A stretch of DNA of 63,700 bases, filler included, from Folioceros fuciformis (lineage: Eukaryota), in assembly GCA_049999805.1 (NCBI GenBank). It is 13 parts of 13 records of this genome, joined end to end, with 100 filler letters (N's around TTAATTAATTAA, not from the genome) between each part and the next. Parts side by side here need not be neighbours in the genome. Positions count along the whole stretch, not along the records: positions 53,471 to 59,871 come from JBNGIO010004380.1; 12 more parts are not named here. One strand, 5' to 3'. Shown in pieces: positions 998 to 59,871 of this stretch. Positions within the stretch are counted from its first letter, which is position 1. Every line of letters begins with the position of its first letter. The notes below the pieces were generated by a model. That model was not told the origin of the DNA. It did not search any database and saw only the letters and a program-made list of their open reading frames with translations. The position numbers and the translations under genes were made by a program.

Positions 998-1006
998 TGA
1001 CCCAAA

Positions 1007-3428: not shown

Positions 3429-3554
3429 TTGCTGATGTCTTCATGAACCAGGTATCATTTGTCCCCTAACATCTGTTCCTAGAACTCTGTTGTGATTAAC
3501 CTGCACAGCACAGGTTACAACTTCACACATTAGTGTCTGTTAAATCCTACAAAC

Positions 3555-7922: not shown

Positions 7923-7931
7923 TGACCCAAA

Positions 7932-8790
7932 CTACCAGTCTACGCTGTTTTCTTCCACACTATTTACAGCCACACTTGCACGACTGCCAAAGGAATCAGG
8001 CTCAGAGGAATCAGGATCATGTTCGGAAGGAGTGGTGAAGCTCTCATCCGATCTTGGAGAGTTTCTCTTCCTACGCTCCACGTAGGAGATCCTCTCCTCA
8101 GTCTCAAGGCTGTGCTCTTCCTCCAGCCTTAGTTCAGATCCTGCAGGGCAAGTGGGAGCTTGTTAGAGAACTGTGAGAAGAAAGCAATGGGGATGCTGAC
8201 ATAAAAGTAGACAGGGAACACTTGCTGTAAAAGCTGACCACATGGCGCTGATACTCGCGGCAGTGCTCTATCCTCACTCGTATCATCTTCAGATGGGTGT
8301 AAGGGCACTTATACCACAGAGGGGTACAAGGAATAGCAAAAGAACCAAGGCTCACAATCTTGGTTTCCTCATCAGAGTGTGTAGGAACTGGAAATCTTAT
8401 CGGCACAGTAGGCCTATAGTCAGAATCAGCATACGCGAACTCACCAGCTTTGAAGCGGAACTTGGCACTTTGATCCCTTGAAAGAGACTTCTCTTTAGGG
8501 GTAGCCGTCTTGCGGGGAGCTGCCTTAAACGCAACAGCAGCCTTTGTCTTATAGGCTGTAGTCTCTGACGAGCGCCGCTGATCAAGAAAAGCTTTGGTGG
8601 TGCCGCGCGGCCTCCCTCGCGAACGCCTTCCGCCGCTGCCACCTTGAGCAGCAGGAGCAGGCATCTTTGCCGATCCTTGCTGCTGAGAGGAGGCGGCTGT
8701 TCTAGTCGGCTTGCTCACAAACCGCCCTAGCTTGTCACGATGGCAGACACGGCGCTTTGCAGGAGGGGAGTCAGTAGCTGAAGACGACAT
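7932..8790 (-). CDS. Second copy of the putative spliced antisense accessory gene
   Basis: Same as 1007-1865, offset by 6925. Confidence 0.6.
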
Positions 8791-9052
8791 CTTGAGCTCA
8801 GAGATCCTACGCTCCAACAGCTTACAAATAAAGGACTTGAAGCGAGGAGGGATGCTATAAGGGTCGCGACGCACCTGCTACCTAAGTTTGTGCAGATACG
8901 CTCCATCGCGTTTCTTTAAAGGCAAAGGTGTCGGCGCAACCCAGTACATGCACACAGCGGAGCTTTCAGCTCAGCTCACAGTCTCACACTCGACCCGTGT
9001 TAGAGAAGGCGAAGAGGAGACGTCCGAATCGTCATAATCCAACAAGTGGGAG

Positions 9053-9284
9053 TGAAGGAGTATTGATGTTGGCATAATGAGATTAGGGTTATATTATATC
9101 CAGTTTCATATTGTGTGTATAGTTTAAAATGTCTTACCTCTTCGCTAGGGTTACGACTGTTAGTAATAGTCACACCCATTCATGAATAGTTAAGTTTAAG
9201 TTTTAATGTTTTACTAACTCTCTTTTTCTTGAATATATACAATGTTATTTTTATAATAAATCTACATCTGCATGTAATTTCTTA
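9053..9284 (+). repeat. LTR, second copy
   Basis: Same as 2128-2359, followed by the PBS at 9285. Confidence 0.8.
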
Positions 9285-9644
9285 TGGTATCAGAGCTTCT
9301 GATGTAGGTTACATTCAAATGAGTGTACATTAGATTGTGCATTTAATTTCATGCACAATCATGTCTCTTTTGCTTTCTTTCAAAAGGAAATTAGGTTTCT
9401 TTTTGAGAAAAGAAAAGAACATATTAAAATTCTTGTAGAAATTTTCTTTATATTTTATAAGGAGATGTGCTAAACCTGGATCTTGTTCCAGTGCATCTCT
9501 AGTCAGATTGCCTTAGGCAATTCTGGTAGAGGTACACTAGAACAACCGCCAGATCTTGCATACAGATTTCTGAAAATTATAGAGAATAGCTTACAGAAAT
9601 GCATATAATTTGCATTTTACAAGCTTCTACAAATTTAGCCGTAA

Positions 9645-10353
9645 ATGGCTACCAATGGAAACAATGTCTGGCGCATTCCTGTTGAGCGTGCAAACAACAA
9701 CAGGAGGCAGCAAAATGGAAATCAAAACAGGCACAATCTTGTTGAGTACATCCATCAACACATTGTGACATGGCTGTTGCGCAATCAAGATCTGCCTGAT
9801 CTCTGCAGAAACCTACAGGAGGCCTTCAATACAATAGTGGAGACTCTCTACCCTGGTCAGAGATATTTGACTTTTGCTCCTTACTTTCCCAGACAGTCGA
9901 TTCCACAAGTGGTGCGATTGCAGCGATCTTCTGGTGGTAACCCTAATCATAGGGGACTTCTCACAACACATGCTGCATCAGACACAGGGATTTTTTCAGT
10001 TACTAACCAGGCTTGAATCATATCAAAACCACATAAAAAGAAATCATGGCAGTGTCATTCGACGCCTTATTGAGTCTAGTGCTGGTATTCAAAGTCTGAA
10101 AGAACAAATCTCTCACCTGAATTTCAAACTGTTGACTTTGTCGAGATCACATTTGCTTGCTAATTCCCCTCATTCTGGAGTATTACGCAGGCATACAAAT
10201 AAGACAAACAGAAGTCACAGGTTTGATGCACCCAATTGTTGCCCATCATACTCCACCCACGCAAACAATAAGTGGAAGATGAGGCATTTAAAACTAGAAA
10301 ACAGTTCAACAGCAGCACAGTGCAGAGTTTCAAACCCTGTTTATGTTCTGTGA
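9645..10353 (+). CDS. Upstream sense accessory ORF(s), second copy
   Basis: Same as 2720-3428. Confidence 0.45.
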
Positions 10354-10479
10354 TTGCTGATGTCTTCATGAACCAGGTATCATTTGTCCCCTAACATCTG
10401 TTCCTAGAACTCTGTTGTGATTAACCTGCACAGCACAGGTTACAACTTCACACATTAGTGTCTGTTAAATCCTACAAAC

Positions 10480-13400
10480 ATGGGTGACGAAGATACCACA
10501 CCCAAACTGTCCTATAACATAGGCAGTGACATGTTTAAGGAAAAGGACAGGTTCGGAGGGGAGAATTACGATATCTGGGTAATGAGGATGCAGGGTGCTC
10601 TTCAGAACAGAGGACTCTGGGATGTAACAACCGGAGATGATAAGTTAGATACAGATGATGCAGCAACTGTCAAGGCATGGACAGTCAGAAATGACGCAGC
10701 CATGTACATGATACGGTGTGGCCTAACCTCTGAAATGTTGAGGCACACTTCAGGAGCAGTATCTGCATCAGATATCTGGTCTAGACTTCGTGAGCTTTAC
10801 TCTGGTGGAAATTCAACCAGTCAGATGGCAGCCCTCAAAAACCTTCAACTCTGCAAGATGCGAGATGGTGACTCAGTAGAAAAGCACATTGCTACTTTCA
10901 GACATCTTGTTTCTAAGTTGGAAGGAACAACACAGGAAGCCATCAAGGAAGATATGTTAGCACTTTATTTAATGCTTTCTTTACCTGCCTCCTGGTCGAA
11001 TTTTGTGACTTCTTATAACACCTCACAGGCACAAGCTCAGAAACTGGCATCTGCAGCCAGGATCAAGCTACCTCCCATGACCTTTTCTGAGTTAGTGGGA
11101 GCACTTCTTCAAGAAGAAGCCACGAGAGGTGGACCTAAGCATGGGAAACAGCAAGCACTCTACACCTCAAACAAGGGCAGAGGAAACAAACCATACCCTA
11201 GAGGCAAAAATACTACACCTATTGCAGGGAGCTCACAGGGAGCTTCCTCACAGAAGAAACCCAAGAAGACCGGGAAATGCAACTGGTGCAAAATTCCCGG
11301 CCATTGGGAAAACGAGTGTCGTAAGAAGCAGGCTGGCATACCTCGCAAGGAGGGCAATGCGAATGCTGAAACACACGTTGTAGTAAAGAAGCAATCCTCT
11401 CCTTCCGCCCTGACAGTAGGCGTAAGGGAGTTTTCTCAACCTCTAGTCTTTCCCACATGCTTATCTGCCATAGCAGAGTCTAGACCATTTCAAGAGTGGT
11501 ACTTAGACACAGGTGCAACAGCGCACATTTGCTTTGATAGAAGTGCCTTCTCCACCTACAGACAAGTAAAGGATCAGTTTGTCTATTTAGGTGATGACAG
11601 GGCATTGGTATCTCCAGGAAAGGGCACAGTGTTCCTTCCTGTCCCTTCAGGGCTAAAACTGTCCCTTACCAATGTTTACTATGTGCCTGGAATGACTAGG
11701 AACCTCATTTCTGTCAGGCAACTGAACATAGACAACAACAGTCACATTCTGTTTACCCCCACAGAGTGCCAGATCCTTGATGCATTTGATCATCGCAAGG
11801 TTTTAGCTTATGGATCTTCTGACCATGATCTATTCCGACTTCACTTGCACAGTATCCCTGTGCAGTCCCACTTGACGTCACAAGGTGACCTCTCACCTTC
11901 ACATCAAACAGACAAAGCCATATTATGGCACAATAGGTTAGGTCATCCACATGGTGCTAAGCTGCAAAAACTGGCTACCAGTGACCTATACTATGATGGA
12001 AAGATTGGCACTCTTCCTACCTTACCCCTGTGTGAAGCTTGTGTGTTATCTAAGCGTCACCAAGCAGCCTTCAAAAACAGGACCCCACACAGAGCCTCTG
12101 ATGTCCTCGAGCTAGTCCACACTGATATTTGTGGGCCACTGTCACAGCCTTCCATAGGTGGTGGCAAGTATTTCTTAACCTTCACTGATGACAAGACAAG
12201 GTTTGTCATGGCTTATATCTTGAAGGCCAAAAGTGAAGCCTTCTCTCAATTCAAAACTTATTTAAAATTTGTTGAGAGATGGACAGGACAACAGCTCAAG
12301 ACCCTCCGCTCCGATAACGGAGGAGAATTCACATCTAACGAATTTCAAACATATTGTGCAGAGGAGGGTATTGGGCGCCAACTCACCGTCGTGTATACAC
12401 CACAGCAAAATGGCGTTGCAGAGCGCCTGAATTTGACTTTGCAGGAGATGGTTTCCTCCTTGCTGCATCAGGCTACCTTACCATTGCCCTATTGGGCTGA
12501 GGCCCTAATGACAGCTGTGTATTTACGAAATAGATTACCTACCACTGCAGTTGTCGGTCAGACGCCATATGAGGCTTTCTTTGGCAGGAAACCGTCTATC
12601 CTTCATCTTTGAACCTTTGGTTGTATCGCTTATGCTTTCATCCCGAAGGAGAAGCGTAAGAAGCTATCTGCAAAAGCCAGAAAACTCCTTATGATAGGCT
12701 ACACTGAGGGCATAAAAGCTTATAAACTGTATGATGTCCCTCAGAACAAGGTGGTATATGCACGAAGCGTTACCTTTGACGAAGGACGTGTTTGGACGCC
12801 AGTGGGAACACCTCCCACTCCAGATGATAGTGATGATCTGTCTGTTCTCCCCAATATCACTTTCTTTGATGACTCAACACCTGAGGAGATTGCTCCTGCA
12901 GGGGGGGATGAGCATGATAATCAAGATAATCAAGTTAATCAAGTTGACCCAGCAGAGGACGATGCTTTTGCTGACCTTGATGAGCAGCAGCAGCAACCTC
13001 CCATTGCTGTTGAGCTACAACCAGAACCGGACATACTAGATCCAGATTATGATGACGTTGCAGACGATGCAGCCGTTGTTCTGGACAGTGATGATGATGC
13101 TGATGCAGTTGAACAGCTACCACATCCTGAACCCCCACCTGAACGTCGATACCCTGCAAGAGAAAGACATGCACCTGATTACTATCAATCACATGATTTC
13201 AGGTCAAGTTCAGCACGTGCTAATGCTATGAGTCTGGACCCTACAGAGCCTCGCACCTATGAAGAAGCTATGAGTAGGCCAGATGCTGCAGAGTGGAAAA
13301 AGGCCGTTCAGTCTGAGTATGACAGCCTCATCAAGAATGGCACTTGGGAACTCGCAAACTTACCTCCTGGACGCAAAATGGTGTCCTGTAAATGGGTATT

Positions 13401-13840
13401 TAAACTCAAGGTTAAAGCAGATGGTACCTTTGATAGGTACAAAGCCAGACTCGTTGCTCGTGGCTTCTCCCAAGTACCAGGTCTGGATTATCTGGAAACT
13501 TATGCTCCTGTGGTGAAGCTAGCCACGTTTCGTGTTCTCTGCGCAGTAGCAGCACACCATGACTATGAGTTGGAAATGTTTGACGTCAAAACAGCCTTCT
13601 TACATGGCAAGCTGGATACTGAAATCTATATGCAGCAACCAATGGGCTACGTAGTAAAGGGAAAAGAGGACCATGTTCTTCGCCTAATCAAGACCCTGTA
13701 TGGTTTAAAACAGTCAGCTCTTGAATGGAATGCAGTCTTAGATGAGGAACTGCGAGCTTTAGGCTTCATCAAATGTGTTTCAGACAGTAGCCTGTATGTC
13801 TATAGGGCTGGAGACACTGTATGTTACCTTGCTGTGTATG
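10480..13840 (+). CDS. copia Gag-Pol, second copy (TGA at 12610-12612; truncated in RT by the scaffold end)
   Basis: Translation identical to 3555-6915. Confidence 0.95.
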
Positions 13841-29940: not shown

Positions 29941-32900
29941 TATCAGGTCTGGTCCATCCACTCAACCATAGCAGGGAACCTACAAGAACCCTGTAAGGTA
30001 TAATCTCCATCTCCTTTTGCTCAGCAGGTGTCTTGGGGCACTGATCTTGTGTCAGGGTAGTCCCCACTGCAGCTGGAGTTGTTGCCGACTTCACATTTTG
30101 CATGTTGAACTTCTCAAGTAATTTGTTCACATAATGCTGCTCGTGGAGAAACACACTTCCCGTCATTGGGTTCATGAGTGCTTGGACACCTAGGAAGAAT
30201 TTGCAAGGGCCCGAATCTGTCATTTTGAATTCTGATGACAAGATACGCTTTACCTCTTTTATCATGCCATCATCGGACCCAAAAATTATTGTGTCGTTGA
30301 CGTACACCGCTAGGTAAGCAGTTCACCCTTTCTTCTTATATACATACACACTGCCATCAGCATCTGATTGCTTAAACCCTCTCCTTACAAGGTATGCATG
30401 TAGCCTCAAGTTCCACCCACGATTTGATTGTTTGAGGCCGTACTACATCTTCTTCAGCCTACAAACCTTGCTTGGGTGCTTGGCATCAATGTAACCTTCA
30501 GGTTGTATCATGTATACCTCTTCTTCAAGGAGGCCATTAAGGAATGCCGTTTGTACATCCATCTGGTGGACATGATAACCTTGCAGGGCAGCGATGGCCA
30601 TGAGTGCTCTTAGTGATGACGCGCGCACAACGGGGGAAAAGGTCTCATTATAATCTATCCCTTCTCTCTGGGAAAATCCACGCACCACTAGTCTAGCCTT
30701 GAACCTAGCTGTAGTGCCATCAGGGTTGAGTTTCCTTTTGAACACCCATTTGTTTGAAATCGGGCTCCTTCCATGAGGTAAATCAACTAATTCCCACGTC
30801 TCGTTCTCAATGAGAGAATCATACTCTGATTGGATCGCTGCCTGCCACTGCTCCTTCTCCGGTGAGTTGATGGCTTCTTTGTAGGATGCTGGTTCACCAA
30901 GGTCTTGGGTTGCTATGAGTATTTGAGCTAGCATGGCATTCGTGTTTACATTCGGCCGTATGTGCCCTTCCATGGCAAGTGGCACTTGACTCCATTCCAG
31001 GGGAGAGCTTGTGTGGTGTATCGCTGACCTCCTAAGCGTAGCAAGCTGACCAGGTTCACGCTGTGTTGGTACATTGGTATCAGCTTCACCCTCACTTGCA
31101 TTGGCCTCAAATGTATCATCAACATCAGTGTCAACTTGTATGCCCTGAGCTGAAGTATGGCGTGGGGCTTGTGGTAGAGCTGCTTGTGGCTGACTCATAC
31201 TTGGAATTATTTGCTCAAATTCAGAGTCACTATCGCTATGGAGTTCAGCAACCTGAGAGTCAGGCATCAGATCCTTCCTCCCCACCTCTCGGGCACAAGC
31301 GGCAACCAACAAGCTGTGTTCATCAAATATACCAACACGAGTGTGAGTAACATGGCCGGAGTTAGGGTCATATACCTTATACCCTTTGATACCCTCAGTA
31401 TATCCAATGAAGGTCATAGCACGGGCCTGGTAATCCAGCTTCCTCTGTTGGGTCTTTGGAATGTGCATATACACACGGCTGCCAAATATTTTCAGATGTG
31501 AAATGGATGGTTTACGACCAGGCCACCGCTCATATGGGGTAGCTCCTATGAAAGAAGAAGTGGGCAAACGATTTTGCACATATGTTGCAGTTTGTACTGC
31601 ATCTGCCCAATAGTGCTTGGATAAACCGGATTGATATAGCATGGCCTTGGCTGCTTCTTGGAGGTATCTGTTTTTCGCCTCTGCCAATGGGATTTGGCTG
31701 GATGTGTGCGAGGAAGTCAGTTGGCGGGCAATGCCAAGGGAACGACAATATGATTGAAAATCGCCGCTAATAAATTCGCCCCCATTATCAGTCCTAAGCA
31801 CCTTGAGAGTTTTCCCGGTTTGTTGTTGAGAAAAATCCACATATTGTTTGAATATTTCTAGAGCCTCACTCTTATGTCGCAAAAAATATGTGACAGTATA
31901 TCTGCTGTAGTCATCAATGACAGCCATAAAGTAAAGGGAACCACCAAGAGATGGTGTTGACATGGGTCTACAAAGATCCGTATGGATCATTTCCAGTAGG
32001 TCAGAGGCACGGTTCTGCTCACCGTTCTTAGGCTTCTTCTTGACCATTTTACTATGGATACAGGCGCCACATAATACATGTGTATCAGTAACCTTCCAAT
32101 CGAGTTTCTCACGGTACAGCTCCTGCTCTGTCATCCGTCTCATCTTTGTGAAGTTTTGATGTGCAAGCCTTGAATGCCACAGGAGCTGAGGATCATCATG
32201 TGTAAGACGTTTGGCCAACATGGCTTGAGATGTTGAATTGGCTTGTGGATTTCCAGCAGGGGATGTGATACAGTCCAGCTTGTATAAATCAGCTTGCAGG
32301 GTACCAAGGGCCAGGATGTGGTCTGTCTGCGTCTCTCGCAGCTCACAGTGGTTTTCGCTGAAAGGGATATTAACCATCCAGTCCTTGCAAAGATGCTGAA
32401 CTGACATTAGATTTTTACACATCTGTGGAACGTGTAGCACTTGGTGAAGCAAGCGGGTGGATCCATCTTGCAGCTGAATTTGCTGGGTGGATCCATCTTG
32501 CAGCTGAATTTGCTGGGTGGATCCATCTTGCAGCTGAATTTGCTCGGTGCCGCAGCCAGCAATTGCAAGTCCACTCCCATCTCCAAGTAGGACAAACTGT
32601 CCAGGTGCATAGGTGTTATAGTTGATAAAGCCTTCTCGCATGTAGCATATGTGCGCGGAGGCACCTGAGTCGACAAACCAATGATCTTGATCAGCCTTGG
32701 TGTGTGCGAGGAACACAGGAAGGATGGTGTTTGGATTTGTCGTTTTGGCCCGGGCAGCAACATGAGCCTCCAATGCTCTCCTCGGCTCCTCGGCCTTTTT
32801 CTTTCTGCAATCGGCATCTATGTGTCCTACAAGACGGCACCAATTACAGGTGAGTTTCCTATGGTTGGGGTTTGGCGGAGCTCGACCTTCATGTGTCTTG

Positions 32901-34947
32901 CCTCTGCCCTGCGATGGTGGTCGTGTGGGAAAGCAGCCACCGCGACCCCGTCTTCCTCCTCTGCCAGCATAAAGGACTTGGCTGTGCGAACCTTAGCCTC
33001 CCCGGCTTGAGTGCATGGTCGCTTCCTCCTCGAGCAAAGCACCAATTGTGTTGGATAAAGACACAGTAGCAGCAGTAGCAGTCCTCAAGCTGCTGTTTTG
33101 TGTGCTGACAAATACCCGGTATTTGTCTGGCAATGACATGAGCAAAGCCACCGAAGCCTGCAACTCCGTGACTGTCGTACCTGCGGATGCCAGCTTCTGT
33201 CTAAGATGGCGACGTGACTGTCGTACCTGCGGATGCCAGCTTCTGTCTAAGATGGCGAAATCGCATCACGTGCTCCTCAACGCTGTCCGTGTCTTTCATC
33301 TTGCAATTCCAAAAAGATCTAGTGGCATGTACCAGGGAGGATTGATTTGTAGTCGCAAACATTCGTGACAAAGCTGTCCATGCCATGTGAGATTCAAATG
33401 CATCATCAATGTGGTGGATCATCGAACTGTCAATGGTAGCCTCCAGTATGGCCCTGACTCTGAGATCTTTCTTGGTCCATGCTGCAACATCGGCCTGCGG
33501 TGCGTTGGCACCTGGCTTAGAAGTTGACCCTACGAGCCCAGACGTCATAATTTGCCCCTGAAAACCTATCCTTGTCCTTGAAATCAAGGCGTGTCACACT
33601 CGCCATGGTAACCCCTTGGATGCGCTGATATGCTGGTGGTTGAGTCAACCAGGTAGGCAGCGTCCCTTGGAGCCACTGCCTTGAGATTGTGAATTTCGAA
33701 GGTGGTGATTTGGAGCGGGCTCTCACAGACGGGGTACTCGAGCGTGGCCCTCTGCTTCTGCCTTGAGGCCTCTCAGCTGAAAGTGATCTCTTCGGAGGCA
33801 TCAAACATGGCCCCAATTTGCATGATGCAGCCCTGGACGGGCAATAATCTGCCGCTCCATGCCTGGTTTTCTGCTTCGTGTGTCAAACTTTGTTTGAGTG
33901 AGGATCTTGGGGTTCCGAGTGTAGGGGCATGGTCACGGCATCCTGCCGGCATGGTTGCTATGGTTGCCCTTCCTCCCACACAGATCAGAAGGGTCGCCAC
34001 GGCCTGCTCTAGCATCAGATGCCGCCGCGGCGCACATCCAAATCACACTGCCGCGCTGCAGCAGCCAGGGGTTGCACCTTGCCTCAGATTGATACCACCG
34101 CGGCCTGCTCCAGCCTTCAATTTCTGCCACTGCTGTTGCAATCTCGGCGTGTGCCTACCAAGGATTGCTGCCACGCCGCTGCAGGGTCTGATCCTGCCAT
34201 GGATTACTGTCGCGCCGCTGCAGGGCCTGATCCAATCATGGATTATTGTCGCGATGCAGTCGCCGTGGCCAGGTCCTGCTTCATCCTTGTGATTCGGCAG
34301 CCTGGAAGCGTTCCTGCCTCCGGAACATCAGGTTGGGCTCACCACGCTTCCGCTGCTGCGGGTTTCTGCCTCAAAAATGCATCTCGTGTCTCAGGGTCTC
34401 AGGGAGCGGGGTGCAAACTGCCATGCCGCACCATACTACGGCAGGCCGTGCTGTGACGCTGTTACAGGGAATGGAATTTCCCTAAATCACACGGCCACGG
34501 CCACAGCCACGGCACCGCGCCCACGGCTCATTGCCGTGCTGCACAATGCCTTCACCATGTCAGGATCTCACCCTGCAGATGCCAGACTCGATGCATTCCC
34601 AAGAATTTGCTGCCTACATTTTCCTTTCTTTCTTCTAAAAAAAAATTAAAGGATCGCAATCTCCTTTAGAGCATCCTGGCGGTAGTGGCTATGCTTGCAG
34701 CGATGCATGGCATCGCTTACCACCTCAGCTCTGATACCATACAAAATTAGGAGAAGCATTTTGCTTGAGAAGAATAATTCATGATACACACATACAAGGT
34801 CTTATGGTTTCGTGCCATATGCAATGGCGGTTAGGTTTGATAATTGAGTCCTTTCACACTAGGCTAACTAGCCCTAGCTATAACTTATTTAACTTAGCTT
34901 AGCTATTAAATGATTGACGCTAGACTACTTCTAAGCTTCACTCAACA
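29941..34947 (-). mobile_element. Ty1/copia element: 5' LTR (34740-34947), PBS (34728-34739), long GC-rich leader, frameshifted gag and PR-IN-RT
   Basis: PBS reverse complement GCTCTGATACCA; FKDKDRFSGANYDVW; WFVDSGAS; HTDLC; RTDNGGEF; KARLVVRGF; DVQTAFL; YVND. Confidence 0.94.
30443..32773 (-). CDS. copia protease-integrase-RT open segment
   Basis: 776-aa open frame with the motifs above and a 10-aa triplication QIQLQDGSTQ. Confidence 0.85.
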   Translation of the reverse strand: MEAHVAARAKTTNPNTILPVFLAHTKADQDHWFVDSGASAHICYMREGFINYNTYAPGQFVLLGDGSGLAIAGCGTEQIQLQDGSTQQIQLQDGSTQQIQLQDGSTRLLHQVLHVPQMCKNLMSVQHLCKDWMVNIPFSENHCELRETQTDHILALGTLQADLYKLDCITSPAGNPQANSTSQAMLAKRLTHDDPQLLWHSRLAHQNFTKMRRMTEQELYREKLDWKVTDTHVLCGACIHSKMVKKKPKNGEQNRASDLLEMIHTDLCRPMSTPSLGGSLYFMAVIDDYSRYTVTYFLRHKSEALEIFKQYVDFSQQQTGKTLKVLRTDNGGEFISGDFQSYCRSLGIARQLTSSHTSSQIPLAEAKNRYLQEAAKAMLYQSGLSKHYWADAVQTATYVQNRLPTSSFIGATPYERWPGRKPSISHLKIFGSRVYMHIPKTQQRKLDYQARAMTFIGYTEGIKGYKVYDPNSGHVTHTRVGIFDEHSLLVAACAREVGRKDLMPDSQVAELHSDSDSEFEQIIPSMSQPQAALPQAPRHTSAQGIQVDTDVDDTFEANASEGEADTNVPTQREPGQLATLRRSAIHHTSSPLEWSQVPLAMEGHIRPNVNTNAMLAQILIATQDLGEPASYKEAINSPEKEQWQAAIQSEYDSLIENETWELVDLPHGRSPISNKWVFKRKLNPDGTTARFKARLVVRGFSQREGIDYNETFSPVVRASSLRALMAIAALQGYHVHQMDVQTAFLNGLLEEEVYMIQPEGYIDAKHPSKVCRLKKM

Positions 34948-35285
34948 CACAACGTTGAGAGACTGTAACCTACGGTGTTGCCATGGCATGTGTGTCAATA
35001 GGATCTACTCCAATCTACGTGCAAGTGTAGGAGAGGAGAGGAGAGAAGAGAGGGTGGTATTGGTGATCACAACCATGAAAACAATACACATCACCACTGT
35101 CTTACTATGGAGGTCCGAGGTCTCCATTTAAGTAGTACATTTAGGGCTACACAACTTCCAGGTTCAATATGGGATAATCTACACTATCCTAAGTTCACTA
35201 ATAACTAGAACTAGTCTAGTATGAACCCAACTGGGATAACTAACACCACATGAGTTTAGCTCATATAGAGCTCGATAACTCAACA
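34948..35285 (-). repeat. LTR fragment (starts TGTTGAG at 35285) inserted into a gypsy RT and itself interrupted by the copia element
   Basis: Matches 49336-49510 in reverse complement; truncates the gypsy RT at DTVA. Confidence 0.75.
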
Positions 35286-35726
35286 CAGCAACCGTGTCCA
35301 GCACACTGTCCATGAAAGGGAGTGGATGATGGACTTTCTTGGTCACCTCATTGAGCTTCTTGAAGTCCTGGCAAACCCTCACCTTGCCAGCTTGCTTCTT
35401 AGACACCACCACAATTGGAGTTTCCCACTCACTAGTTAGGACATGATAGATAACTCCAGCCTCCAAGTGCTGGTCCAATTGCTCCTTCACAACCATGGAG
35501 TACTTTGGGTTCAGCCGGTATTGCTTCACCCAAACCGGTGTGCTTCCCTCCTTGAGGTTTATCCAGTGAACACCCAGTTCCTCCGGAACACTTGTCATGC
35601 CTATCACCTTGAAGGCAAACACATCCAAGTATTCAGTTAACAGTGCCTTCAAATCTACCCTCTCCTTAGGTGTGAGGTACTTGGACACCTTGACCTTCTT
35701 CCCTAGGGCCAATTCCATGTCCTCCA
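35286..35726 (-). pseudogene. Ty3/gypsy reverse transcriptase N-terminal fragment
   Basis: KQYRLNP...SEWETPIVVVSKK..GKVRVCQDFKKLNEVTKK..HPLPFMDSVLD. Confidence 0.9.
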
Positions 35727-35922
35727 TGTTATTTGATGCATTTGTTTAAGGATTATTTTGACAAAGAATACTTGAGACAATGCAGCAAAAGAACTTAATT
35801 AAATTAATACAAAATTGTAGCTTTTATAGTGTCAAGTTTGTTAAACCCAAAAGTCATGTGTTTAATCGAGTTAGGTTAATCTAACCCATGGTTATCTAAA
35901 TAACCTTAACACCCCCTCTTAA
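35727..35922 (-). mobile_element. 3' LTR (35727-35911, TGTTA...TAACA) with PPT of another minus-strand element
   Basis: Inverted termini; CCCCCTCTT (PPT on the minus strand) directly adjacent. Confidence 0.75.
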
Positions 35923-46408: not shown

Positions 46409-47052
46409 NNNNNNNNNNNNNNNNNNNNNNNNNNNNNNNNNNNNNNNNNNNNTTAATTAATTAANNNNNNNNNNNNNNNNNNNNNNNNNNNNNNNNNNNN
46501 NNNNNNNNTATTGCCTCCAAATTTTATACCAAACCATCTTTGTCTTAGCATCGTACTAACTCCATGGATGCTTTCCTAGATACAACTCCCATCACTTTCT
46601 CTAGTGCTTGAGTTCCCTTGCCAAAACTTCATTGCTTTGACATCCCTCCAATCCAAGGGGTTTGGTAATAGATGGCATTGAGCACCCTAACATGAGACAT
46701 GAAACACAAGGGCACCAAAAAGCTTGTAGATACATGCATTTAAAACTTGTAGTTTCCATCTACAAATATACGCATAAATATATATGGACAAAAAAAAGCC
46801 TTGAACCCATTCCCTTCCCCTNNNNNNNNNNNNNNNNNNNNNNNNNNNNNNNNNNNNNNNNNNNNNNNNNNNNNNNNNNNNNNNNNNNNNNNNNNNNNNN
46901 NNNNNNNNNNNNNNNNNNNNNAAAAATTGCTTTCTTGCCTTCTAGACTAAGAAGGCGGGGGTATTTTCCATGATTGAAAAAGAGATGGAAAGTCCCATCT
47001 ACTCCAAAGATTGGAGGAACAACCCCATTAGAGCCAAAGGCAAAAAGAGGTA

Positions 47053-47378
47053 TGTGGACTCCACATCCTGAATAGGTCCTTGGAAAATGGTAGGATATCT
47101 CTTTTTGGGAATCTCTAAGTGAACCCTGTGGTGAAATAGTTAGAAGATTAGTAAAGATTAGTAGCTAGATTAATGGGGAGGTGAGATGTGTCTTTGAAGG
47201 GTTGCTGGAATGATCTGAAAGAAGGGATGGAATGATTTGAGAGAGGAGGGAGAGGGTTGAGAGGCACTGACCATTTTGGTAGTCTTGAGAGGTTGGTCAA
47301 TTTTGGTAAGGGCACCCAGTGGTGTCCATGGGACACAACCCCTTTCAGGTCAAAACTAGGTTTGGGTCAAAGTTAGGG
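47053..47378 (+). repeat. 5' part of a gypsy LTR (TGTGGACTCCACA...), target of an inverted same-family insertion
   Basis: Near-perfect reverse complement of ~48352-48676. Confidence 0.88.
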
Positions 47379-49235
47379 TGTGGAGTGAAACTTGCACCCA
47401 AGAACCACCAAGGGGCCACACTTCCCCTTATTATCGTTGCAGTCTTATGATTCGCTCCCAAGGGAGTGAACTAATGTCAAGGTTACCTACATCTCCCTAA
47501 TCTCACCCTATCTATCAGCATATACCAAGTGCTACAGCAATAGGTCAGAAGTCTCGGTCCTGTCTTCAGCTCCTACCACAACACCAACCCCAGCCTCAAC
47601 AAAATGAGAACTCCAGCATTGTCTTCAGCCTTCATTTCCAGCTCCAAGTATCAATCACTTCAGTGCTAAGAGGAGGCTCCAGCCCCAAGTCTGGCCTTCA
47701 ACTCTCAGCACCTAGTGCTAGCTACCTCCGCAGCTGAACGAGAACCTCAGCTTCAGCTAGCTCCTCACTCCAGCTCCAACACTTCATTCCACCACTTCAG
47801 CACTTCACTTGAGCACTTCAGTCCTTCACTTTAGCACTTCAATCCTTCACTTCAGCTCAACTCCTCACTTCAACACTTCCACTTCCAAAATCTGCAACTT
47901 CTCTAAACCCTTCTCTCCTGCAATTTGGAACACAACAGCCTTCCCTCTTGCAGCCTTCAAGGCAAAGGCAAGGCCTAGGGCTGGGTAGCCTCCTTGGCTC
48001 ACGGCCCTGCAACCTCACCTCAGCCAGTATGCAAGGTGGTCAGCCATTGCGGATCCGGCCACACGAATCTTGGCAGTCTTGGGATCCTCCACGTTCCCCT
48101 AGTGGCAAGGGAAATCAAGACCTTGGTTTAGTCTCAACCAGCTCAGCGCCCTAAGCCAGGAGTTCTGCACCCAAGGTCTAGGGAAATCGCACCGTAGACA
48201 GCCCCCTCCTCAATGGCAGGTCTAGCCTCTTATACTACCTTGGCCCAAACCTCCATCTCTATCTATTAGGGTTAGCCTCAGTCAACCACCCAGCAATCTC
48301 TCTCTGACCTAAGCCGGCCCTAATTCTGACCTAAACCTAACTCTGACCTAACCCTAACTTTGACCCAAACCTAGTTCTGACCTGAAGGGGGTTGTGTCCC
48401 ATGGACACCACTGGGTGCCCTTACCAAAATTGACCAACCTCTCAAGACTACCAAAATGGTCAGTGCCTCTCAACCCTCTCCCTCCTCTCTCAAACATTCC
48501 ATCCCTTCTCTTAGATCATTCCAGCCACCCTTCAAAGACACATCTCACCTCACCATTAATCTAGCTACTAATCTTTCCTAATCTTTTAACTATTTCACCA
48601 TAGGGTTCACTTAGAGATTCCCAAAAAGAGAAATCCTACCATTTTCCAAGGACCTATTCAGGATGTGGAGTCCACATACTCCCCTTCTCATTTGTTGGCG
48701 TTCTCGCCAACTACTGATAATATTTCTTCACCCGCCAGCCATTAACCCTAGTTGGCAAGTTAGGGCCGTTGAGGTGCTGCAGTTGGATGGACCCATTCTC
48801 ATACACTTCCAGCACCCTCTAAGGTCCCATCCATCTCAAGTGCAGCTTACCTGGAAAGTGCATGTACCTATTGTCATATAACAAGGCTAAATCTCCAGGC
48901 ACAACATACTCTTGTTTACGCAACTTCTGGTCGTGCCACTTCTTCCTCCTCTCCTGAACATCAAGGAAAACAGCCAAGGCCCGTTCCCTGTCCTCATCAT
49001 GCTGCACAAAACTGGTTAGCCTCTCCAGCTGGCTCTCCTCCACAGGCAATCGATTGCTCTCCTGCATTCTCAAGGTAGGTACCTCAAATTCGATAGGCAT
49101 GATCGGTGAGTGTCCATAGGTGAGGTAATAAGGGGTCTGCTGGGTAGTAACCTTCTCAGCAGTCCTGTATGCCCACAAGGCTGAGTGGAGTTTCCTATCC
49201 CAGTCATGAGCATAGGTGACGGTGAGTTTGCTGAG
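47379..49235 (-). mobile_element. Ty3/gypsy 3' end: integrase C-terminus, PPT and complete ~1.3-kb 3' LTR (47379-48676)
   Basis: WAYRT...TPYYLTYG...GKLHLRWMGP (GPY/F region); PPT GAGAAGGGGAG on the minus strand next to 48676; termini TGTGGA...TCCACA. Confidence 0.9.
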
Positions 49236-53470: not shown

Positions 53471-56155
53471 AATGTCTGTTGGGTTTGCAGCTGTTGGCAC
53501 ATACTCCAAATCAATCTGTCCAGATTTGATCAAGTCAAGCCACCAGGACTTGGCCCCGATCTGCTCCCGTCAACCCGGCTAGACGGTCAGCCAGGCTTTC
53601 CAGATCCGCCAACAACCCGCCTGCTCATCGACCAGCTAGCCGTCTGCCCGATCTCTGCTAGTCCTCGAGCTGTCTGCCTGGCTTGGGTCCAGCGCCGCCC
53701 CTGGCTTGGGTCCAGCGCCGCCCCTGGCTTGGCTTGCAGCCTGATCCGCTGGCTGGCCGCTGATGGCCGGCTCAGCCTCTGCTACCTGGCCCAAGTCCAC
53801 CCCGGCCAGCTCCTGCAAGCCGGGCGGCTTGCCTGCTAGCAGCCCAACTTGGCCAGCCGCCATGGGCTCCTCCATCCCCAGAGGCCGCAAACCGGCCTCT
53901 TGCCTGCCGGAATCCGCCAGCGTGCTCCCGAATCATGTAGCTACTGAGCCACCTGCCGGCCTGCCGATTCAGTCTCGGCTGCCTAGCAGTCGAGCGCTTG
54001 CCCAAGGGTCGCCTGCCCACCACGACCCAGGCCAGTCTGCCTGGCTGCTTGGGTTCCTGCAGCCAGTGACTGCCTGGCTTACCCGGCCGCCTTGCTGCCT
54101 GATTGATCGTGCCCGCCTCTTGGATCCGGCAGCCTTGCCTGGCTGCCTGGCCGGGCAGGGCTGCCTGGCCGGCAGGGCTGCCTGATCCTCAACCAGCTGC
54201 TGCTAGGCCAGCAACTTGTGAGGATCCCTCCCCGGCCTGGACTTCCCCCAGCTGGCCGCCTACCAAAGGCCGCAAGCTAGCCTGCTCTCCTTCCAGATCC
54301 GGTCAGGCAGCCAACCTGCTCGGCCTGGCAGCTTGCTTGATCCGTCCGCCAAGAGCCAACCCCTCTACACATCCCCTGATCCAGCCAGGGGGCCACCTGA
54401 GCCCACTGGCTAGCTAGATTCGGCTGGGAAGTCAGCCAAACCTGGCAAGCCCCCCCCTTGCCAACGTGCTCGTGTGCCTAGGCTTGCCTACTGGCTAGCC
54501 CGACCTGGATCTGGCTAGGCAGCCAGCCCACAGGGCGGCCTTCTTCTCCCGCACCTGGTTAGGTAGCCGTCTTGCACTAGCCCGCTTGCGCGATTCCCCT
54601 GGCCATCGCCCGCTGGCCGAGGCCGTCTAGCCAGAGGCCGCTAGCTGGCCTCCGGACTCTAGATCTTGCCAGGCAGCCAGCCTGCTCGGCCTGGCTGCTT
54701 GCTGGATCCACCTGCCTAGAGACCAGGCTAGCCTGCCTGGCTGCTTGGGCTCCTGCAGCCAGGCCGGTGCTTGGCTTCCGGATCCAGTAGGTAGCCGGCC
54801 TGCCGATCGACACCCCTCCGGCCAGGACTCCCCTGGCCAATCTGCCACCCTAGGCGACTGCCCGGCTGCCTGGATCCGCCTGCAGGCTGCCCTTGCCGCT
54901 GGGGCGCCGGCCAGCTCCTCAGCAGCCGCTGCCAAGCTACCTAGCGACTGCCTGGATGCCTGGCCGAAATCGCCTGCTTCTGGCCTGCCCGCTTGCTGGC
55001 TGGCGATCCGGCCAGCGCCTGTCTGGGTCCGCTGTGACGAGTCGTCATGACCCAGCCCCTGTCCAGCCAGCCTTCTGGTTGCTTGGTCCAGTTGCAACCA
55101 GCCCGGCTCCAGAATCGGGCGGGCAGCCGTCATCTGCCGCCGCTCGTTAGATCTCTCCACCGCCAGCCACCCCACCGACCGGATTTTGGCCTACCCACCT
55201 GCTTGGCTAGNNNNNNNNNNNNNNNNNNNNNNNNNNNNNNNNNNNNNNNNNNNNNNNNNNNNNNNNNNNNNNNNNNNNNNNNNNNNNNNNNNNNNNNNNN
55301 NNNNNNNNNNCCAGCCAGGCAGCCCGCCTGCTTGGCCTGGCTTCCTGCTGAGCCGCCTGGCTCCTACAGCCAGGCACTTCACCCCCGAGTCCTCCCAATC
55401 AGCTCCCCGCGCTGCAGCCATCAACTGCCCGACTCAAGCCCACCCCGGCCAGCTCCTTGCAAGCCAGGCGCCTTCCTGCTATCAGCCCGACTTGACCAGC
55501 CGCCATGCCTGATCCACTCAGGCAGCCGGCTTGCTGGCCTGCCTACCTTCGTCCCGGCCCACTCTTGTGGTCGGTCCGACTCCTAGTTCCCTGACCCTGT
55601 TGCCAGCCCAACCGGCCCTGGCTGCGGCTTGCATGCAGCTGGCCAACCTGGCTGCTGGTCAGGTTCCTCAGCACCCAGGGGGCCCCTGGCTTGCTTGTGC
55701 TACCTATTCAAATGGGCTGGGCTAGGCTGTCTAGCGTTCCGGCCAAACCCGCTTGGATCGCTTGCCGGGCGACCTGCCCCTCAGCACCCGCTGCCATCCA
55801 TTACCGCTTGGATCAGCCCAAGGCCCGTCTGGCCTGGATCTAGCGCCGCCTCAGGCTGCCTGCCTGACCACCTCTAGCTGCAGCCAGCCAGCGGCCGCAT
55901 GGCGATCCGACCAGGCCCACCTACCAGGATCTGCCCAACCAGCCGCCCGTTCTGCTCCCCCGTTACCTTATCCCGAGGAACCAGAGCCCGTGCCCTATCT
56001 ACCACACAACCTACCTACTCTATCGACTCACCATAAATCTAGCTACTATTCTAGCCTAATCCCCCAACCTTTCCTCTACAACACTCACTCACAGATCCAA
56101 AAAAAAAGAAAACCTATCCTTAACCCAGGGGTCTGTTCAGCATGTGGAGTCCACA
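53471..56155 (-). repeat. Very GC-rich low-complexity LTR-like region ending in the TGTGGAGTCCACA terminus
   Basis: TTCAG.ATGTGGAGTCCACA at ~56136-56155 matches the gypsy LTR terminus at ~48657-48676 and abuts a copia RT. ORFs here are compositional artefacts. Confidence 0.6.
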
Positions 56156-57169
56156 CTGATATTTGCCCTAAGCAGCTGAGTATACTACAGCAGATGGATG
56201 TCTGCACTGCTTTCCTCCATGGCATCCTTGAGGAAGAGCTGTATATGGAACAACCTAAAGGATATGCCGATCCTGCACATCCCGATTACGTGTGTCAGTT
56301 AATCAAATGCTTATATGGGCTGAAGAAAAGTGCAGAACGCTGGTATAAGTGTTGTGACAAAGCTCTAAAAGGCCTTGGCTTTTGCCAATGCCAAGCAGAC
56401 TCAAATGTGTGTGTGTTGCAAAAAGGGGATACTTACGCGATTCTTGCTCTTTATGTAGACGATGTGATACTTGCAGCCAATGACACATCCCTGCTCACAC
56501 ACGTTAAGGACATGTTAAGGGAAACATTTGAGATGACTGACAGTGGAGATCTCCTATTCTGCCTTGGTATTCAGGTGTTAAGGGTCCACTTTGAGGGACT
56601 GCTCAATACACCAGCATAAATACATAACAGAGATTCTACACAAGTTCAACATGGGCCATGCACATCCAGCAGCTACTCCAGGTGCAGTAGGTGCCAAGCT
56701 CACGAGATATTAATGTGCCACAACTGAAGCTGACCAGCTGGACATGCAGGACGTTCCATATCATCACGCTGTGGGTAGTCTAATCTTTGTTAGTAACTGG
56801 ACACAACCCGATATCCAGCACTCAATCAGCACTTTTTCACAGTTCTTAGAGCACCCTAGCCGTGCACACTGGACTGCAGTGAAGAAAATATTTCGATACT
56901 TGAAAGGGACTCGCCATATAGGCCTATGCTACACATGTAGTAATAAGAGGCACTTATCTCTGCAAGGGTTCACCGACGCTGACTGGGCTTCTGACAGCGA
57001 CTCCAGAAAAAGCCTCTCCACGTATGCTTTCCTCTTGTCCCAAGCAGCTGTTAACTGGAGCTGCAAGAAGCAAACCATTATAGCCCTCTCCAGCACTGAG
57101 GCTGAATATAAGTCTCTTACAGATGCCACAAAGGAAGTTGAATGGGAGCGTGCGTTCTCAAAGGATATA

Positions 57170-57429
57170 TGTTACGAAATGGATAATCTGCCCGTAACCC
57201 TGCTGACCAGCTAGTTACCGTAGACCGTAATTAATAGTATTTAATAATTACAAATTGGTGTGCCTCTTCGGAAGAGACACGCAGTGACGCTATTTAAGAC
57301 ACACTTTGTATACACTTTGTAGAGACTAAAACGAAATATCTCTCTGAGCATTGCATCTTGATCATGCTAGACTAGATGCAATCCTAATCATGCTAGATTA
57401 GATGCAATCCTACTACTAGGATTTTAACA
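57170..57429. mobile_element. Solo LTR (260 nt, TGTTA...TAACA) with 5-bp TSD ATATA inside copia RNase H
   Basis: ATATA at 57165-57169 and 57430-57434; excision restores ...KDIGETQDGPTNLFCDNQSAI. Confidence 0.92.
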
Positions 57430-57684
57430 ATATAGGAGAGACACAGGATGGTCCCACTAACCTCTTTTGTGACAACCAGTCTGCGATTGCCATGGTGGCT
57501 AACCCCTGCTTCCATGCACGGACGAAACATATTGAGATCCACCATCACTATGTTAGGGATGTAGCTGAGAGGGGAATTGATAAGATCCTCTATGTGCCTA
57601 CAGATGGCAAACAGCTGACATCCTAACAAAGGCCTTGCCCAAAGACAAACATGAGAAACATATGGATGGCCTTGGACTGTTTAA

Positions 57685-58279
57685 TTACAGCCAGTACTTC
57701 AAAGCACAGTGAGAGGGGGTCTTACGGGTGAGGACATAGTCCTCTGATGTTGTTGTTACAATTGTTTTGTTTGTTTCCAGCCTGGTGTCTCCTGTTTCTG
57801 CAAACACTTACAGTCATGAGACAGGGAGGGTTACATAGCAGCAGCGTGCTCAGTAGTAGTAGACTGTTAAGCAGCAGTATCTCAATACCAGCTGCAAGTG
57901 GATGAAGCCCCACGTTTTTTAAACTGACCTGGATGCTGGAAGATCACCTCTCCCCCTCCTGCCTCTCTTTGAGCAAATGAAGCAGCTTCGCTGCTTTGTG
58001 AAGTGGTTTGAGCAAGCAAGCGCTATCTCCCACATCTGTTGGCAGGACGCAACTCTCCTCCACCCTCACGGGCTTGCTCCAGCATAATTTAACTTCAAGG
58101 GAAATCTTCCACCTACTCATAGTCACACTCGAGCCCAGGACATGGTGTTCATCCCACTCCTCAGCCCTTAGGGGAACAGGTCGTGGCAGCTGTCTTTTTA
58201 GCCTCCCTCTTCCTTTCCTGCCCTGCTCACACATAGGGCTAGCAGTCTTCCCGCCTCCTGCTTCACGCTTGGGAGCCAT
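57685..58279 (-). pseudogene. Putative antisense accessory gene in the 3' region of the copia element at 56156-58491
   Basis: ATG 58279 (MAPKREAGGG...GRKGRGRLKR); candidate upstream intron 58356-58299; candidate last exon 57797-57685 ending beside the pol end. Confidence 0.4.
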
Positions 58280-58491
58280 GGTTGTCATCAGCAACAGTCT
58301 GAGGATTTGCACGCAAGTGCAAATTGTGATGAAGGTAGCGTAAACTGCCGCGATACTTGTAGCCATCCCTGCCAGCTCGGGCTCACAAGTGCACTCTCAA
58401 TGATAGTTGTTGGGCATAATTGCCTGCTGCCCACTCCTCGTGATTGACCTTTAGATGCCTCCCCAAGCTCGTACGCTTAAGGGAGGGTGTT

Positions 58492-59347
58492 TGTTCACAT
58501 ATTAAAATGTGTTCTACACATACATCCAGGAAGAATAGAATTGAAAAGGTAGTGTCTAGTCCTTACACAAGTCTCAAAATGGGACTGGCAGTTGTAACTG
58601 CTAATCTAATCTAACTATCTAAGTTACTAGCCCTAAGCATAGCAATGTTAATTAACTACTCAACACTCCCACTCATTGCAAAGTGCTTAGGTACTTTATA
58701 AACTTTCATTAATCGGACTGAACTTAAATGTTCGCCAGCGCAGCACGAACACGAGGAGTCACAAACAAGTACTTCAGCTCCCAGTCGCGCATGTCAGCAT
58801 CAAATCCCTTGCTTAAATTCACTGCTCAGGAACAGAAGACGCCAGCTTTTGTTTCAGGTTCCAAGAGCTCGACGAGATGGTTTTGTCTGGAGCTACGCTA
58901 GGGTCTTCGAGTCAGCCATCTGCGGCGCTAGGTTCCAGCTCCGAGCTCGGTCCGCCCACTGTAGAGAAGTCTGAAGGCCCTAGTCATACTGCTGTTGCTA
59001 TGGCGGTTGCTTGCACTACTCCTTCAACAGTTGCTCTTGTCGAAGACGGTGCTCCTGCACAAGCTGCCACACTCGACTGTCTAGATGCTGCGCCTCTCCG
59101 CCTTCGTCACGGCCGCGCTTCAAGTGGACTAAGACGGGTTAAGCGCGAGGCCACACCCTGCGATGCACACTGGATGAAGAAACTCCGGTAGATGGAGAAG
59201 CGTGAAGCTCTCCTCACTCACAGAATTTCTGCTATGGCAACTTCAGGCTTCTTATGTTCCAGCTGCAAGCTCAGGCGTTTCGCCGTGTGCTCCCGCTCCT
59301 CCAGCACATACTCCCACTGAACAAGGTTGCTATTCGCCTTTAAGTCC
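58492..59347 (-). mobile_element. 3' LTR (58492-58665), PPT and 3' region of a minus-strand LTR element carrying an antisense ORF (58877-59191, + strand)
   Basis: TGTT...AACA termini; CTCCCACTC (PPT GAGTGGGAG on the minus strand) at 58666-58674. Confidence 0.7.
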
Positions 59348-59871
59348 TGTGGGGTTAAAATATGGTACCCGGGGGTACCGCGAGGTCCACACAAGCCCTC
59401 TATGTCGTTGTAGCTCTGGGATTCGATGGCAAGGGAATGATTTGTGTTAAACTACACAGGTTAGCTTCTAAAGTCAGCCAACACCTAAAACTCGACTGAC
59501 CCACACACACGCGTCCAGTGCTCGGAGCTTACCAAGCCCCCTTACTTCTTCCTCTAGGCGACTCCCCTACCACTCGGTCTCTCCAGGGACTACCTCCCCC
59601 TGGACTACTCTTGGTTGCTGTGAACCTCCAAAGTTTGGGGTAGTAGTTTGTTTTGGTTGAAAAAGGGTTAATAGTGGTATGGTTTGGTTTTCTTTTTCAA
59701 CTTATTTTTCCTAATTTTCCTTGATTTTCTGGTCATTTTTCCTATTTTTCTTTGTGCTAATTGGGTTAATTGACCAGGAAATAGTGGGTTTGGTTATAAG
59801 AGTGGGTATAGGTTTGGTCCCAGAGCTGGGAAGGATTAGGTTCGGTACCGGGCCATAGGGTTGGGTGATTA
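59348..59871 (+). repeat. LTR-like repeat beginning TGTGG
   Basis: Abrupt composition change; shares sequence with 29764-29840. Confidence 0.6.

Follow-up and report, generated by a model that had tools for sequence, protein, structure and literature searches.

Two candidate antisense open reading frames of possibly unequal standing in a pile-up of retrotransposon remnants from Folioceros fuciformis

We analyzed a 63,700-nucleotide stretch of joined parts from the genome assembly of Folioceros fuciformis (GCA_049999805.1), referred to below as the window, and studied its N-free piece at 55311-59871. In this piece the remnant of a Ty1/copia retrotransposon (element A) is followed by a unit resembling a long terminal repeat (LTR) and by a second candidate element (element B). 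Each is accompanied by an open reading frame (ORF A on the minus strand, ORF B on the plus strand) that an earlier note on this DNA had described as an antisense gene with a 5' intron, with the same architecture as in a third element, the intact copia at the start of the window (El1). Our assessment, which we hold tentatively, is that the piece is a pile-up of dead transposon pieces in which the two 'antisense genes' are unequally real, ORF B being the likelier of the two to be coding. Read from the sequence, ORF B is probably a genuine or recently dead coding exon, and ORF A is more likely a chance ORF or a long-dead relic. The contigs of the window are linked by N44-TTAATTAATTAA-N44 or by gaps of 10 or 100 N, and the features are collected in Table 1.

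Results

Codon usage and length favor different ORFs

The length of each ORF was compared with 2000 dinucleotide shuffles, and codon usage was scored as log-odds trained on three intact copia ORFs of the window, using composition-matched, stop-free shuffles as the null. Length and codon usage disagree: ORF A is long and not coding-like, and ORF B is coding-like and not long. ORF B gave a codon-usage z of 2.65-2.99 (p about 0.004) and was the sole positive among the 15 ORFs of at least 50 amino acids (aa) in 57700-59620. Its three-base periodicity (p<0.01) was reached by 0/300 shuffles when the frame was read from its ATG and by 2/300 for the full 124 aa, with GC contents of 0.67, 0.62 and 0.43 at the first, second and third codon positions. 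ORF A yielded a z of -0.13 to 0.32, that is, no copia-like signal, together with a periodicity p of 0.04-0.12. At p<0.05 the codon test recovered 3/5 of the copia positive controls and 0/5 of the control ORFs without a Pfam match. The opposite strands were unremarkable for ORF length, both the sense strand of A and the minus strand of B (58667-59394), where no ORF exceeded 58 aa.

The putative antisense gene of El1 is the strongest case in the window. Its ORF, located between the pol stop and the polypurine tract (PPT), was matched in length by 0/2000 shuffles and in periodicity by 0/300, its codon z was 2.2-2.5, and the sense strand was unremarkable for ORF length. A second minus-strand ORF, at 7935-8162, is also coding-like (codon z 2.1); its end lies 13 nt from the pol stop, and this suggests two coding exons. 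The protein contains the stretch GRRSRGRPRG, which we take to resemble an AT-hook core; it had no Pfam match. Of the three candidate antisense ORFs that the earlier note read as coding, El1 and ORF B show a coding signature, but ORF A, where z is about 0, does not. The sequences 1-6915 and 6926-13840, separated by 10 N, are 100% identical over 6915 bp; this has the look of an LTR element whose circular assembly, with the internal region and a single LTR, was output two times, and we therefore count one El1 copy, not two. The El1 leader of about 1.2 kb (9300-10480), from the primer-binding site (PBS) to the gag ATG, is unusually long, and its plus-strand ORFs of 123 and 160 aa (z 1.15 and -1.18) carried no coding signal.

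Element A is a truncated and disabled copia

The earlier note had called the element at 56156 a copia with a basic antisense ORF in its 3' region, and our analysis confirmed both points. Judged by an RVT_2-type reverse transcriptase (RT) followed by RNase H, A is a Ty1/copia element. Against the El1 pol it gave four collinear high-scoring segment pairs (HSPs) in tblastn (38-59% identity; frames 1, 2, 3 and 2), which correspond to residues 320-733 of 744; the integrase part is absent because of the 5' truncation at 56156. As read from the sequence, A is dead, with four disabling lesions in pol (two frameshifts, one in-frame stop and one insertion). The end of pol reads ...ADILTKAL... and is closed by a TGA at 57710-57712. 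Copy data came from the Logan contigs of a single DNA run (X1), in which single-copy contigs have a depth of about 7-13 and for which the difference tables are partial, with 12 of the 21 indel rows. No run listed as RNA contains the locus. Of the three other runs compared, X3, X5 and X6 gave no cover of 57453-59288, and X5, presumed to be RNA, placed nothing on 57453-59594. The 277-bp insertion in the RNase H region had a word depth of 800-900 in X1 versus about 100 alongside, and two X1 contigs connected 57164 to 57430, representing other copia copies without it. This repeat holds a 26-bp tandem duplication.

The left edge of A adjoins a 129-bp sequence (56027-56155) that is a relative (72%) of the terminus of an inverted-repeat element at 47050-48679. 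This relative ends exactly where A starts, and such an element therefore probably truncated A. The repeat pair at 47050-47379 and 48351-48679 is 330 bp long, 96.7% identical and about 1.6 kb apart, and looks like a terminal inverted repeat (TIR) element. At the other end, the spacer from the pol stop to a PPT-like run belongs to the family of A, since one diverged X1 contig has both the pol end of A and spacer patches (57922-58017, 58122-58166 and from 58426). Summed X1 depth was about 70-170 over the pol of A and about 55-75 over its spacer, with the lowest value, 17.8, at 57759-57911. The distance from pol to PPT was 1121 nt in El1, 766 nt in A and at least 729 nt in B.

An LTR-like unit may mark the end of a second element

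The LTR-like unit is flanked on the left by AAGGGAGGG, directly followed by TGTT at 58488, and on the right by CTCCCACTC (58666-58674). Its X1 depth was about 168 versus about 60 on either flank. Read on the minus strand the unit begins TGTTGAGTAG, comparable to TGTTGAGTGA, which lies in the 5' LTR region of a copia with its PBS at 34728. In alignments with three other copia LTRs, 5, 1 and 11 of 300 shuffles scored as well as the minus orientation, versus 92, 201 and 37 for the plus orientation. In our view the unit, together with the mirror-image PPT-like run to its right, is probably the 3' end of another copia-like element, B, on the minus strand. A plus-strand 5' LTR was ruled out for want of a TGG-type PBS behind the unit, and the unit was rejected as a solo LTR after a check for a target-site duplication (TSD), in which the flanks GAGGG and CTCCC did not form a direct repeat.

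The evidence for B as an LTR element consists of the PPT-like run and the LTR-like unit, because no pol or other copia hallmark is visible right of 58666. The earlier note had taken the element at 58492 for a minus-strand element whose copia identity was to be confirmed. Both assignments are tentative: no pol was seen and the orientation of the unit is weakly resolved, and for these reasons a position of ORF B antisense in a copia is unproven. Any pol of B would lie outside the window, because very high-copy repeats begin at 59395 and the contig ends at 59871. These repeats had word depths of 5,000 to 113,000, versus about 10 for single-copy contigs, and an X1 joint connected 59394 to 59618; over B itself the X1 depth dropped from 60 to 23. 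Within the repeats, TGGTCCCAGAGC at 59815 is a 2-mismatch relative of the copia PBS and recurs at 29808 on the minus strand.

Candidate introns and gene models

All the splice, start and sequence motifs listed earlier for the two antisense genes are present in the sequence, and the ORF from ATG 58877, with its basic patch, does run past one TAG as had been described, for 42 further open codons. ORF A sits between the pol stop of A (57712) and the PPT-like run (58479), on the strand opposite to gag-pol. From ATG 58279 it reads MAPKREAGGGKTASPMCEQGRKGRGRLKR... and stops at 57944-57946. The 58-nt intron proposed for A fared poorly, in that it lies within the open 150-aa frame, would cut this longer frame, and once removed leaves ATG 58366 in another frame. 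Of the in-frame ATGs of ORF A, ATG 58279 comes third, and the nearest ATG past the acceptor stands at 10 nt, not 19. Should ORF A have been coding at some time, an unspliced reading that starts at ATG 58366 is preferable to one with the candidate intron. Part of the candidate last exon (57759-57797), along with its acceptor, is skipped in a related copy by a joint from 57758 to 57922, and the minus-strand ORF 57725-57943 had a codon z of -1.3. Among the X1 copies of ORF A, two contigs lacked a net 81 nt at 58164-58246, and with it the basic patch, and three carried a 3-nt insertion at 58323/58324, within the candidate intron. The X1 joints in ORF A (58163/58165 to 58247) have non-canonical ends and represent indels between copies.

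In B, removal of the candidate 89-nt intron, the sole candidate of the loose pattern for ATG 58877, leaves ATG 58728 open and 20 codons upstream of ATG 58877. The frame past the TAG is not coding-like (per-codon log-odds -0.105). A candidate donor at 59188 (CG/GTAGAT) would be able to remove the TAG, alongside at least eight other in-frame GT..AG models in this as in each of the regions compared. Removal of the candidate intron likewise brings an exon-1 ATG into frame in El1 (ATG 8906; 68-nt intron, 8874-8807), and both introns would be phase-2; the opposite applies to A. An in-frame exon-1 ATG argues only weakly for splicing, because 14/38 control ORFs with an intron candidate share the property.

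The earlier note had placed the ATG about 17-20 nt past the acceptor in all three elements. We measured 19 nt in A and in B and 16 nt in El1. The distances from the ATG to the LTR boundary were 209, 212 and 262 nt in A, B and El1, respectively. We defined a loose intron pattern (GTR..YAG, 50-120 nt long, with its end 15-22 nt upstream of the first ATG) and a strict one (GTA..CAG). The loose pattern occurred in 32/116 control ORFs of at least 60 aa and in 12/51 of at least 100 aa, a background of 24-28% that undercuts the earlier proposal of a conserved gene structure. Global alignments of the sequences from PPT to ATG gave z of 0.83 for A and B, 1.05 for A and El1, and a marginal 1.86 for B and El1 (45/1000 shuffles). 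A common architecture of an intron followed by an ATG about 19 nt later is not demonstrated.

Comparisons among the proteins and database searches

The earlier statement that the three proteins are mutually dissimilar was upheld. Shuffles reached the pairwise score in 46/1000 cases for El1 and A, reflecting a Gly/Arg-rich stretch, in 758/1000 for El1 and B, and in 974/1000 for A and B; BLASTP among them also returned nothing significant. Comparisons of the three 3' regions by DNA alignment and tblastx, and of 57700-59394 with the rest of the window, were equally without significant matches. Basic patches are present in all three proteins.

Searches with ORF A (111 aa), ORF B (124 aa) and the El1 ORF (247 aa) found no homologues, which for ORF A and ORF B covers 5.8 billion clusters and 1.84 billion representatives. 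An exhaustive phmmer search with ORF A (150 aa) gave one match, rejected as an artefact in which a 25-residue stretch was paired 10 times with a translated tandem repeat. Metagenome scans for A and B produced pattern matches and 0 confirmed relatives. A Pfam search of six ORFs at E up to 10 returned only DUF1179 at E 0.23, which was disregarded. The Atlas gave no usable match for A or El1, and recognition was 1430 for A, as is usual for shuffled sequence, and 1452 for El1. Orphan status and low recognition are not an argument against coding, because the clearly non-random El1 ORF scores equally low. AlphaFold2 models built without an alignment had a mean predicted local distance difference test score (pLDDT) of 56.5 for A and 42.2 for El1, too poor for a fold search. 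Over 55311-59871, Rfam at E up to 0.1 gave 0 matches, and the tandem repeats consist of two short arrays found only within inserted repeats.

Table 1. Coordinates of the features discussed, counted along the window
Feature	Position	Strand	Remarks
El1 gag-pol	3534-7919		Pfam Retrotran_gag_2, rve, RVT_2; pol stop 7920-7922
El1 antisense ORF, 247 aa	8137-8877	-	Between pol stop and PPT
El1 PPT, LTR and PBS	9044-9285		PPT 9044-9052; LTR to 9284; PBS TGGTATCAGAGC at 9285
Element A, Ty1/copia pol (RT + RNase H)	56156-57712	+	5'-truncated, pseudogenised; Pfam RVT_2, E 7e-33
Secondary high-copy repeat insertion in RNase H region of A, 277 bp	57146-57422		Gap between tblastn HSPs
Candidate last exon of A	57685-57797	-	Acceptor TGCAG before 57797; motif present
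Spacer of A, pol stop to PPT-like run, 766 nt	57713-58478	+	Sequence
ORF A, 150 aa stop-to-stop	57947-58396	-	In-frame ATGs 58366, 58288, 58279; basic patch GRKGRGRLKR
Candidate 58-nt intron of A, CAA/GTATCG...CTCAG	58299-58356	-	Donor G 58356, acceptor end 58299; motifs present
PPT-like run AAGGGAGGG, placed as PPT of A	58479-58487	+	Sequence
LTR-like unit TGTT...AACA, 178 bp	58488-58665		174 bp if start 58492; sequence
PPT-like run AATGAGTGGGAG, placed as PPT of B	58666-58677	-	Sequence
TATA-like motif TTTATAAA	58695-58702	+	Sequence match to motif
Possible first coding exon of B, from ATG 58728	58728-58768	+	In frame with ATG 58877 once 58769-58857 removed
Candidate 89-nt intron of B, CAA/GTACTT...TTTGTTTCAG	58769-58857	+	Sole loose-pattern candidate for ATG 58877
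ORF B, 104 codons then TAG	58877-59191	+	TAG 59189-59191; Ser/Ala/Gly-rich, then basic patch RLRHGRASSGLRRVKRE
ORF B frame past TAG, 42 codons	59192-59320	+	Stop 59318-59320; translation
Very high-copy repeats ending readable B	59395-59871		223-bp block 59395-59617, then 59619-59871

Other copia sequences in the window

Further exact copies of the copia PBS TGGTATCAGAGC at 14885, 16381 and 34728 mark the 5' LTR ends of copia fragments, and the one at 34728 belongs to a minus-strand gag-pol at 30446-33593. A 188-aa minus-strand ORF nearby (35182-35745) had no Pfam match at E 0.001; its sequence (...LLTEYLDVFA...) reads, presumably, like the protease-to-RT linker of a Ty3/gypsy pol.

Discussion

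Several of our results weigh against the assessment that ORF B is the likelier coding sequence and belongs to a second element. ORF A exceeds shuffled sequence in length (150 aa, p=0.007; 140 aa from its first methionine, p=0.005) and ORF B does not (124 aa, p=0.14; 104 aa from its first methionine, p=0.066, with an in-frame TAG besides). Both indel events in the copies of ORF A are multiples of three (2/2, with 12 of the 21 indel rows covered). Common to A and B are the donor hexamer CAAGTA, the pattern CAA/GTA...CAG and the identical 19-nt spacing, and the strict pattern was rare in control ORFs (5/116 of at least 60 aa and 1/51 of at least 100 aa, or 2-4%); with this donor and spacing in common with B, A could yet be a genuine member. 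The codon test was trained on about 2,300 codons from three copia ORFs, and the periodicity test is unspecific, as 4/7 control ORFs without a Pfam match also reached p<0.05. A diverged copy of B (58890-59335) shows 57 differences, and its 5 gaps add up to a length change of +5. For element B itself, a Pfam search at E up to 10 on all ORFs in 58666-59451 found no minus-strand gag-pol, the matches that orient the LTR-like unit are short TA-rich motifs, one of them palindromic, and the 10-mer AGTGGGAGTG common to the PPT-like run of B and the El1 PPT/LTR junction is not significant (163/500 shuffles). If the unit is the 3' LTR of A, ORF B lies in flanking DNA and is antisense to nothing.

We consider it rather unlikely that nothing here is functional, which would make the ORFs and intron-like motifs chance products of decayed tails or flanking repeats and the codon signal of B a composition artefact. 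Such an explanation would fit the absence of homologues and Pfam matches for either ORF, the shuffled-like Atlas recognition of A, the frequency of the loose intron pattern and its many alternative models, and the lack of significant likeness among the three proteins and their 5' regions. Stop-to-stop ORFs of at least 110 aa are also common in the window, with 62 beyond 13840 and 40 of the 47 that were scanned having no Pfam match. It would leave aside, however, the length of ORF A, the codon score of ORF B in a test where no negative control was positive, and the El1 ORF, which is clearly non-random at the same low recognition. The spacers between pol and PPT are, moreover, of a length unusual for Ty1/copia. 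Another unlikely explanation takes the LTR-like unit as the plus-orientation 3' LTR of A, with flanking repeat DNA beyond 58665 and ORF B as part of another plus-strand unit, either a transposon or a gene fragment. The PPT-like run followed by TGTT fits the order of pol, spacer, PPT and LTR; LTRs of about 200-235 bp occur in other copia of the window (El1 and the one that has its PBS at 34728), the unit has roughly twice or more the X1 depth of the pol of A, and no minus-strand pol is visible right of 58666. This arrangement requires, on the other hand, that a mirror run of nine purines fell by chance exactly at the other edge of the LTR. It is also at odds with the copia-like terminus and better LTR alignments of the minus orientation, and with the placement of ORF B, which is directed outward and begins 63-212 nt beyond the unit, a layout as in El1.

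In its fullest version, the earlier proposal gives each of El1, A and B a homologous antisense gene that is spliced (a short 5' exon, an intron of 58-89 nt and an ATG 16-19 nt past the acceptor), the structure of this gene being conserved across copia lineages while its protein evolves fast in conflict with the host. We regard this as improbable. The similar distances from ATG to LTR, the basic patches, the donor and spacing common to A and B, and the in-frame indels of A are in its favor, and with pol sequences 38-59% identical A and El1 represent distinct lineages. Against it, ORF A has no codon signal, its intron breaks a longer ORF and its ATG is one of three in-frame choices; part of its candidate last exon falls in a segment missing from a related copy; the 5' regions are not significantly similar save for the marginal B-El1 pair; B is assigned to copia with no visible pol; and three loci in one window are too few for a lineage-wide trait. 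We would give equally little credence to the broader idea that the copia elements of this genome, with pols about 40-60% identical, all keep a PPT-adjacent promoter, a short phase-2 intron and an antisense, fast-evolving basic orphan gene, in a Ty1/copia slot comparable to that of the retroviral antisense genes and possibly serving counter-silencing.

If B is, as we prefer, a minus-strand element, it would have inserted at or within 4 nt of the PPT/LTR junction of A. ORF B, as its likely coding exon, would then belong with the antisense additional ORFs of the aORF-3R class discussed below, like the stronger one of El1 (7935-8877). Transcription would proceed outward, opposite in strand to gag-pol, from a promoter of its own that lies just internal to the PPT, possibly with a short 5' intron. 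The predicted product is a small, basic and largely disordered orphan protein, which by analogy with gene23 of maize Grande may be nuclear and act on the expression of the element itself or on host silencing. Alternatively, the antisense RNA itself may feed control by double-stranded RNA and small interfering RNA.

Extra ORFs that run backward in LTR retrotransposons are already known, mainly in Ty3/gypsy elements. The passages of PMC7264820 on this subject describe aORF-3R, a class of additional ORFs that in plant LTR retrotransposons run antisense in the interval from pol to the 3' LTR, with gene23 of maize Grande, rice RIRE2 and Silene Retand as examples. According to the same passages they have their own promoter, are antisense to gag-pol and encode orphan proteins, that of Grande being nuclear; they are suspected of regulating retrotransposition, or of acting through the antisense RNA itself, and are recognized by their presence in most copies of a family and by conservation about as good as that of gag-pol (PMC7264820). 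ORF A and the El1 ORF resemble them in their position from pol stop to PPT or 3' LTR and in their strand, and the ORFs studied here share the orphan, basic and perhaps nuclear product and the promoter proposed upstream. The described cases, however, are Ty3/gypsy elements of Tat/Retand type, in which the 3' regions are long and most copies conserve an ORF of several hundred aa, whereas here the elements are Ty1/copia (A, and B as a candidate) and the ORFs span 104-150 aa. Common bean has 15 Ty3-gypsy families, such as pvRetro13, for which PMC4093653, in its part on these families, reports an ORF2 of unknown function, placed beyond the retrotransposase ORF and ahead of the 3' LTR and transcribed in the opposite orientation. 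The likeness to our ORFs lies in this extra ORF, its orientation and its place. The bean proteins, in contrast, are alike (E down to 1e-66) and some have an SMC-type domain, whereas ours show no similarity and no Pfam domain; all 15 bean families are gypsy, and the two bean copia with an extra ORF have a sense env-like ORF (PMC4093653, same part). The Ty3/gypsy element Boty of Botrytis cinerea and Sclerotinia also has an antisense gene (PMC7264820, as cited there), and resembles our case in having a small antisense accessory gene behind pol.

Retroviruses offer a further comparison, with a minus-strand gene at the 3' end, a start near or in the 3' LTR and possibly a 5' intron. HBZ of human T-cell leukaemia virus (HTLV) is spliced, and human immunodeficiency virus 1 (HIV-1) has ASP. 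Promoters of these genes lie inside the 3' LTR, as mentioned for the antisense promoter of HTLV in PMC7264820, whereas the start proposed here is internal, beside the PPT, and there is no sequence relation. Within Ty1/copia, the passages of PMC7264820 cite antisense promoters of Mdoryco1-1 in apple and AtRE1 in Arabidopsis; the likeness is antisense transcription within a copia, but what is cited is promoter activity, not an antisense protein-coding gene. Our full-text literature search returned, in the text it retrieved, no description of a spliced antisense gene in a copia, and a term search of the plant LTR-retrotransposon survey PMC6317226 gave 0 occurrences of antisense or extra ORF in the text covered.

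Seen against this background, the two ORFs contribute no more than a single plausible new example (B) and a doubtful one (A), and El1 is the stronger case. Were several copia lineages of one genome to carry genes of this kind in a common exon-intron layout, this would imply an accessory function that is both general and old; candidates would be targeting to the nucleus, control over expression of the element, or interference with silencing by the host.

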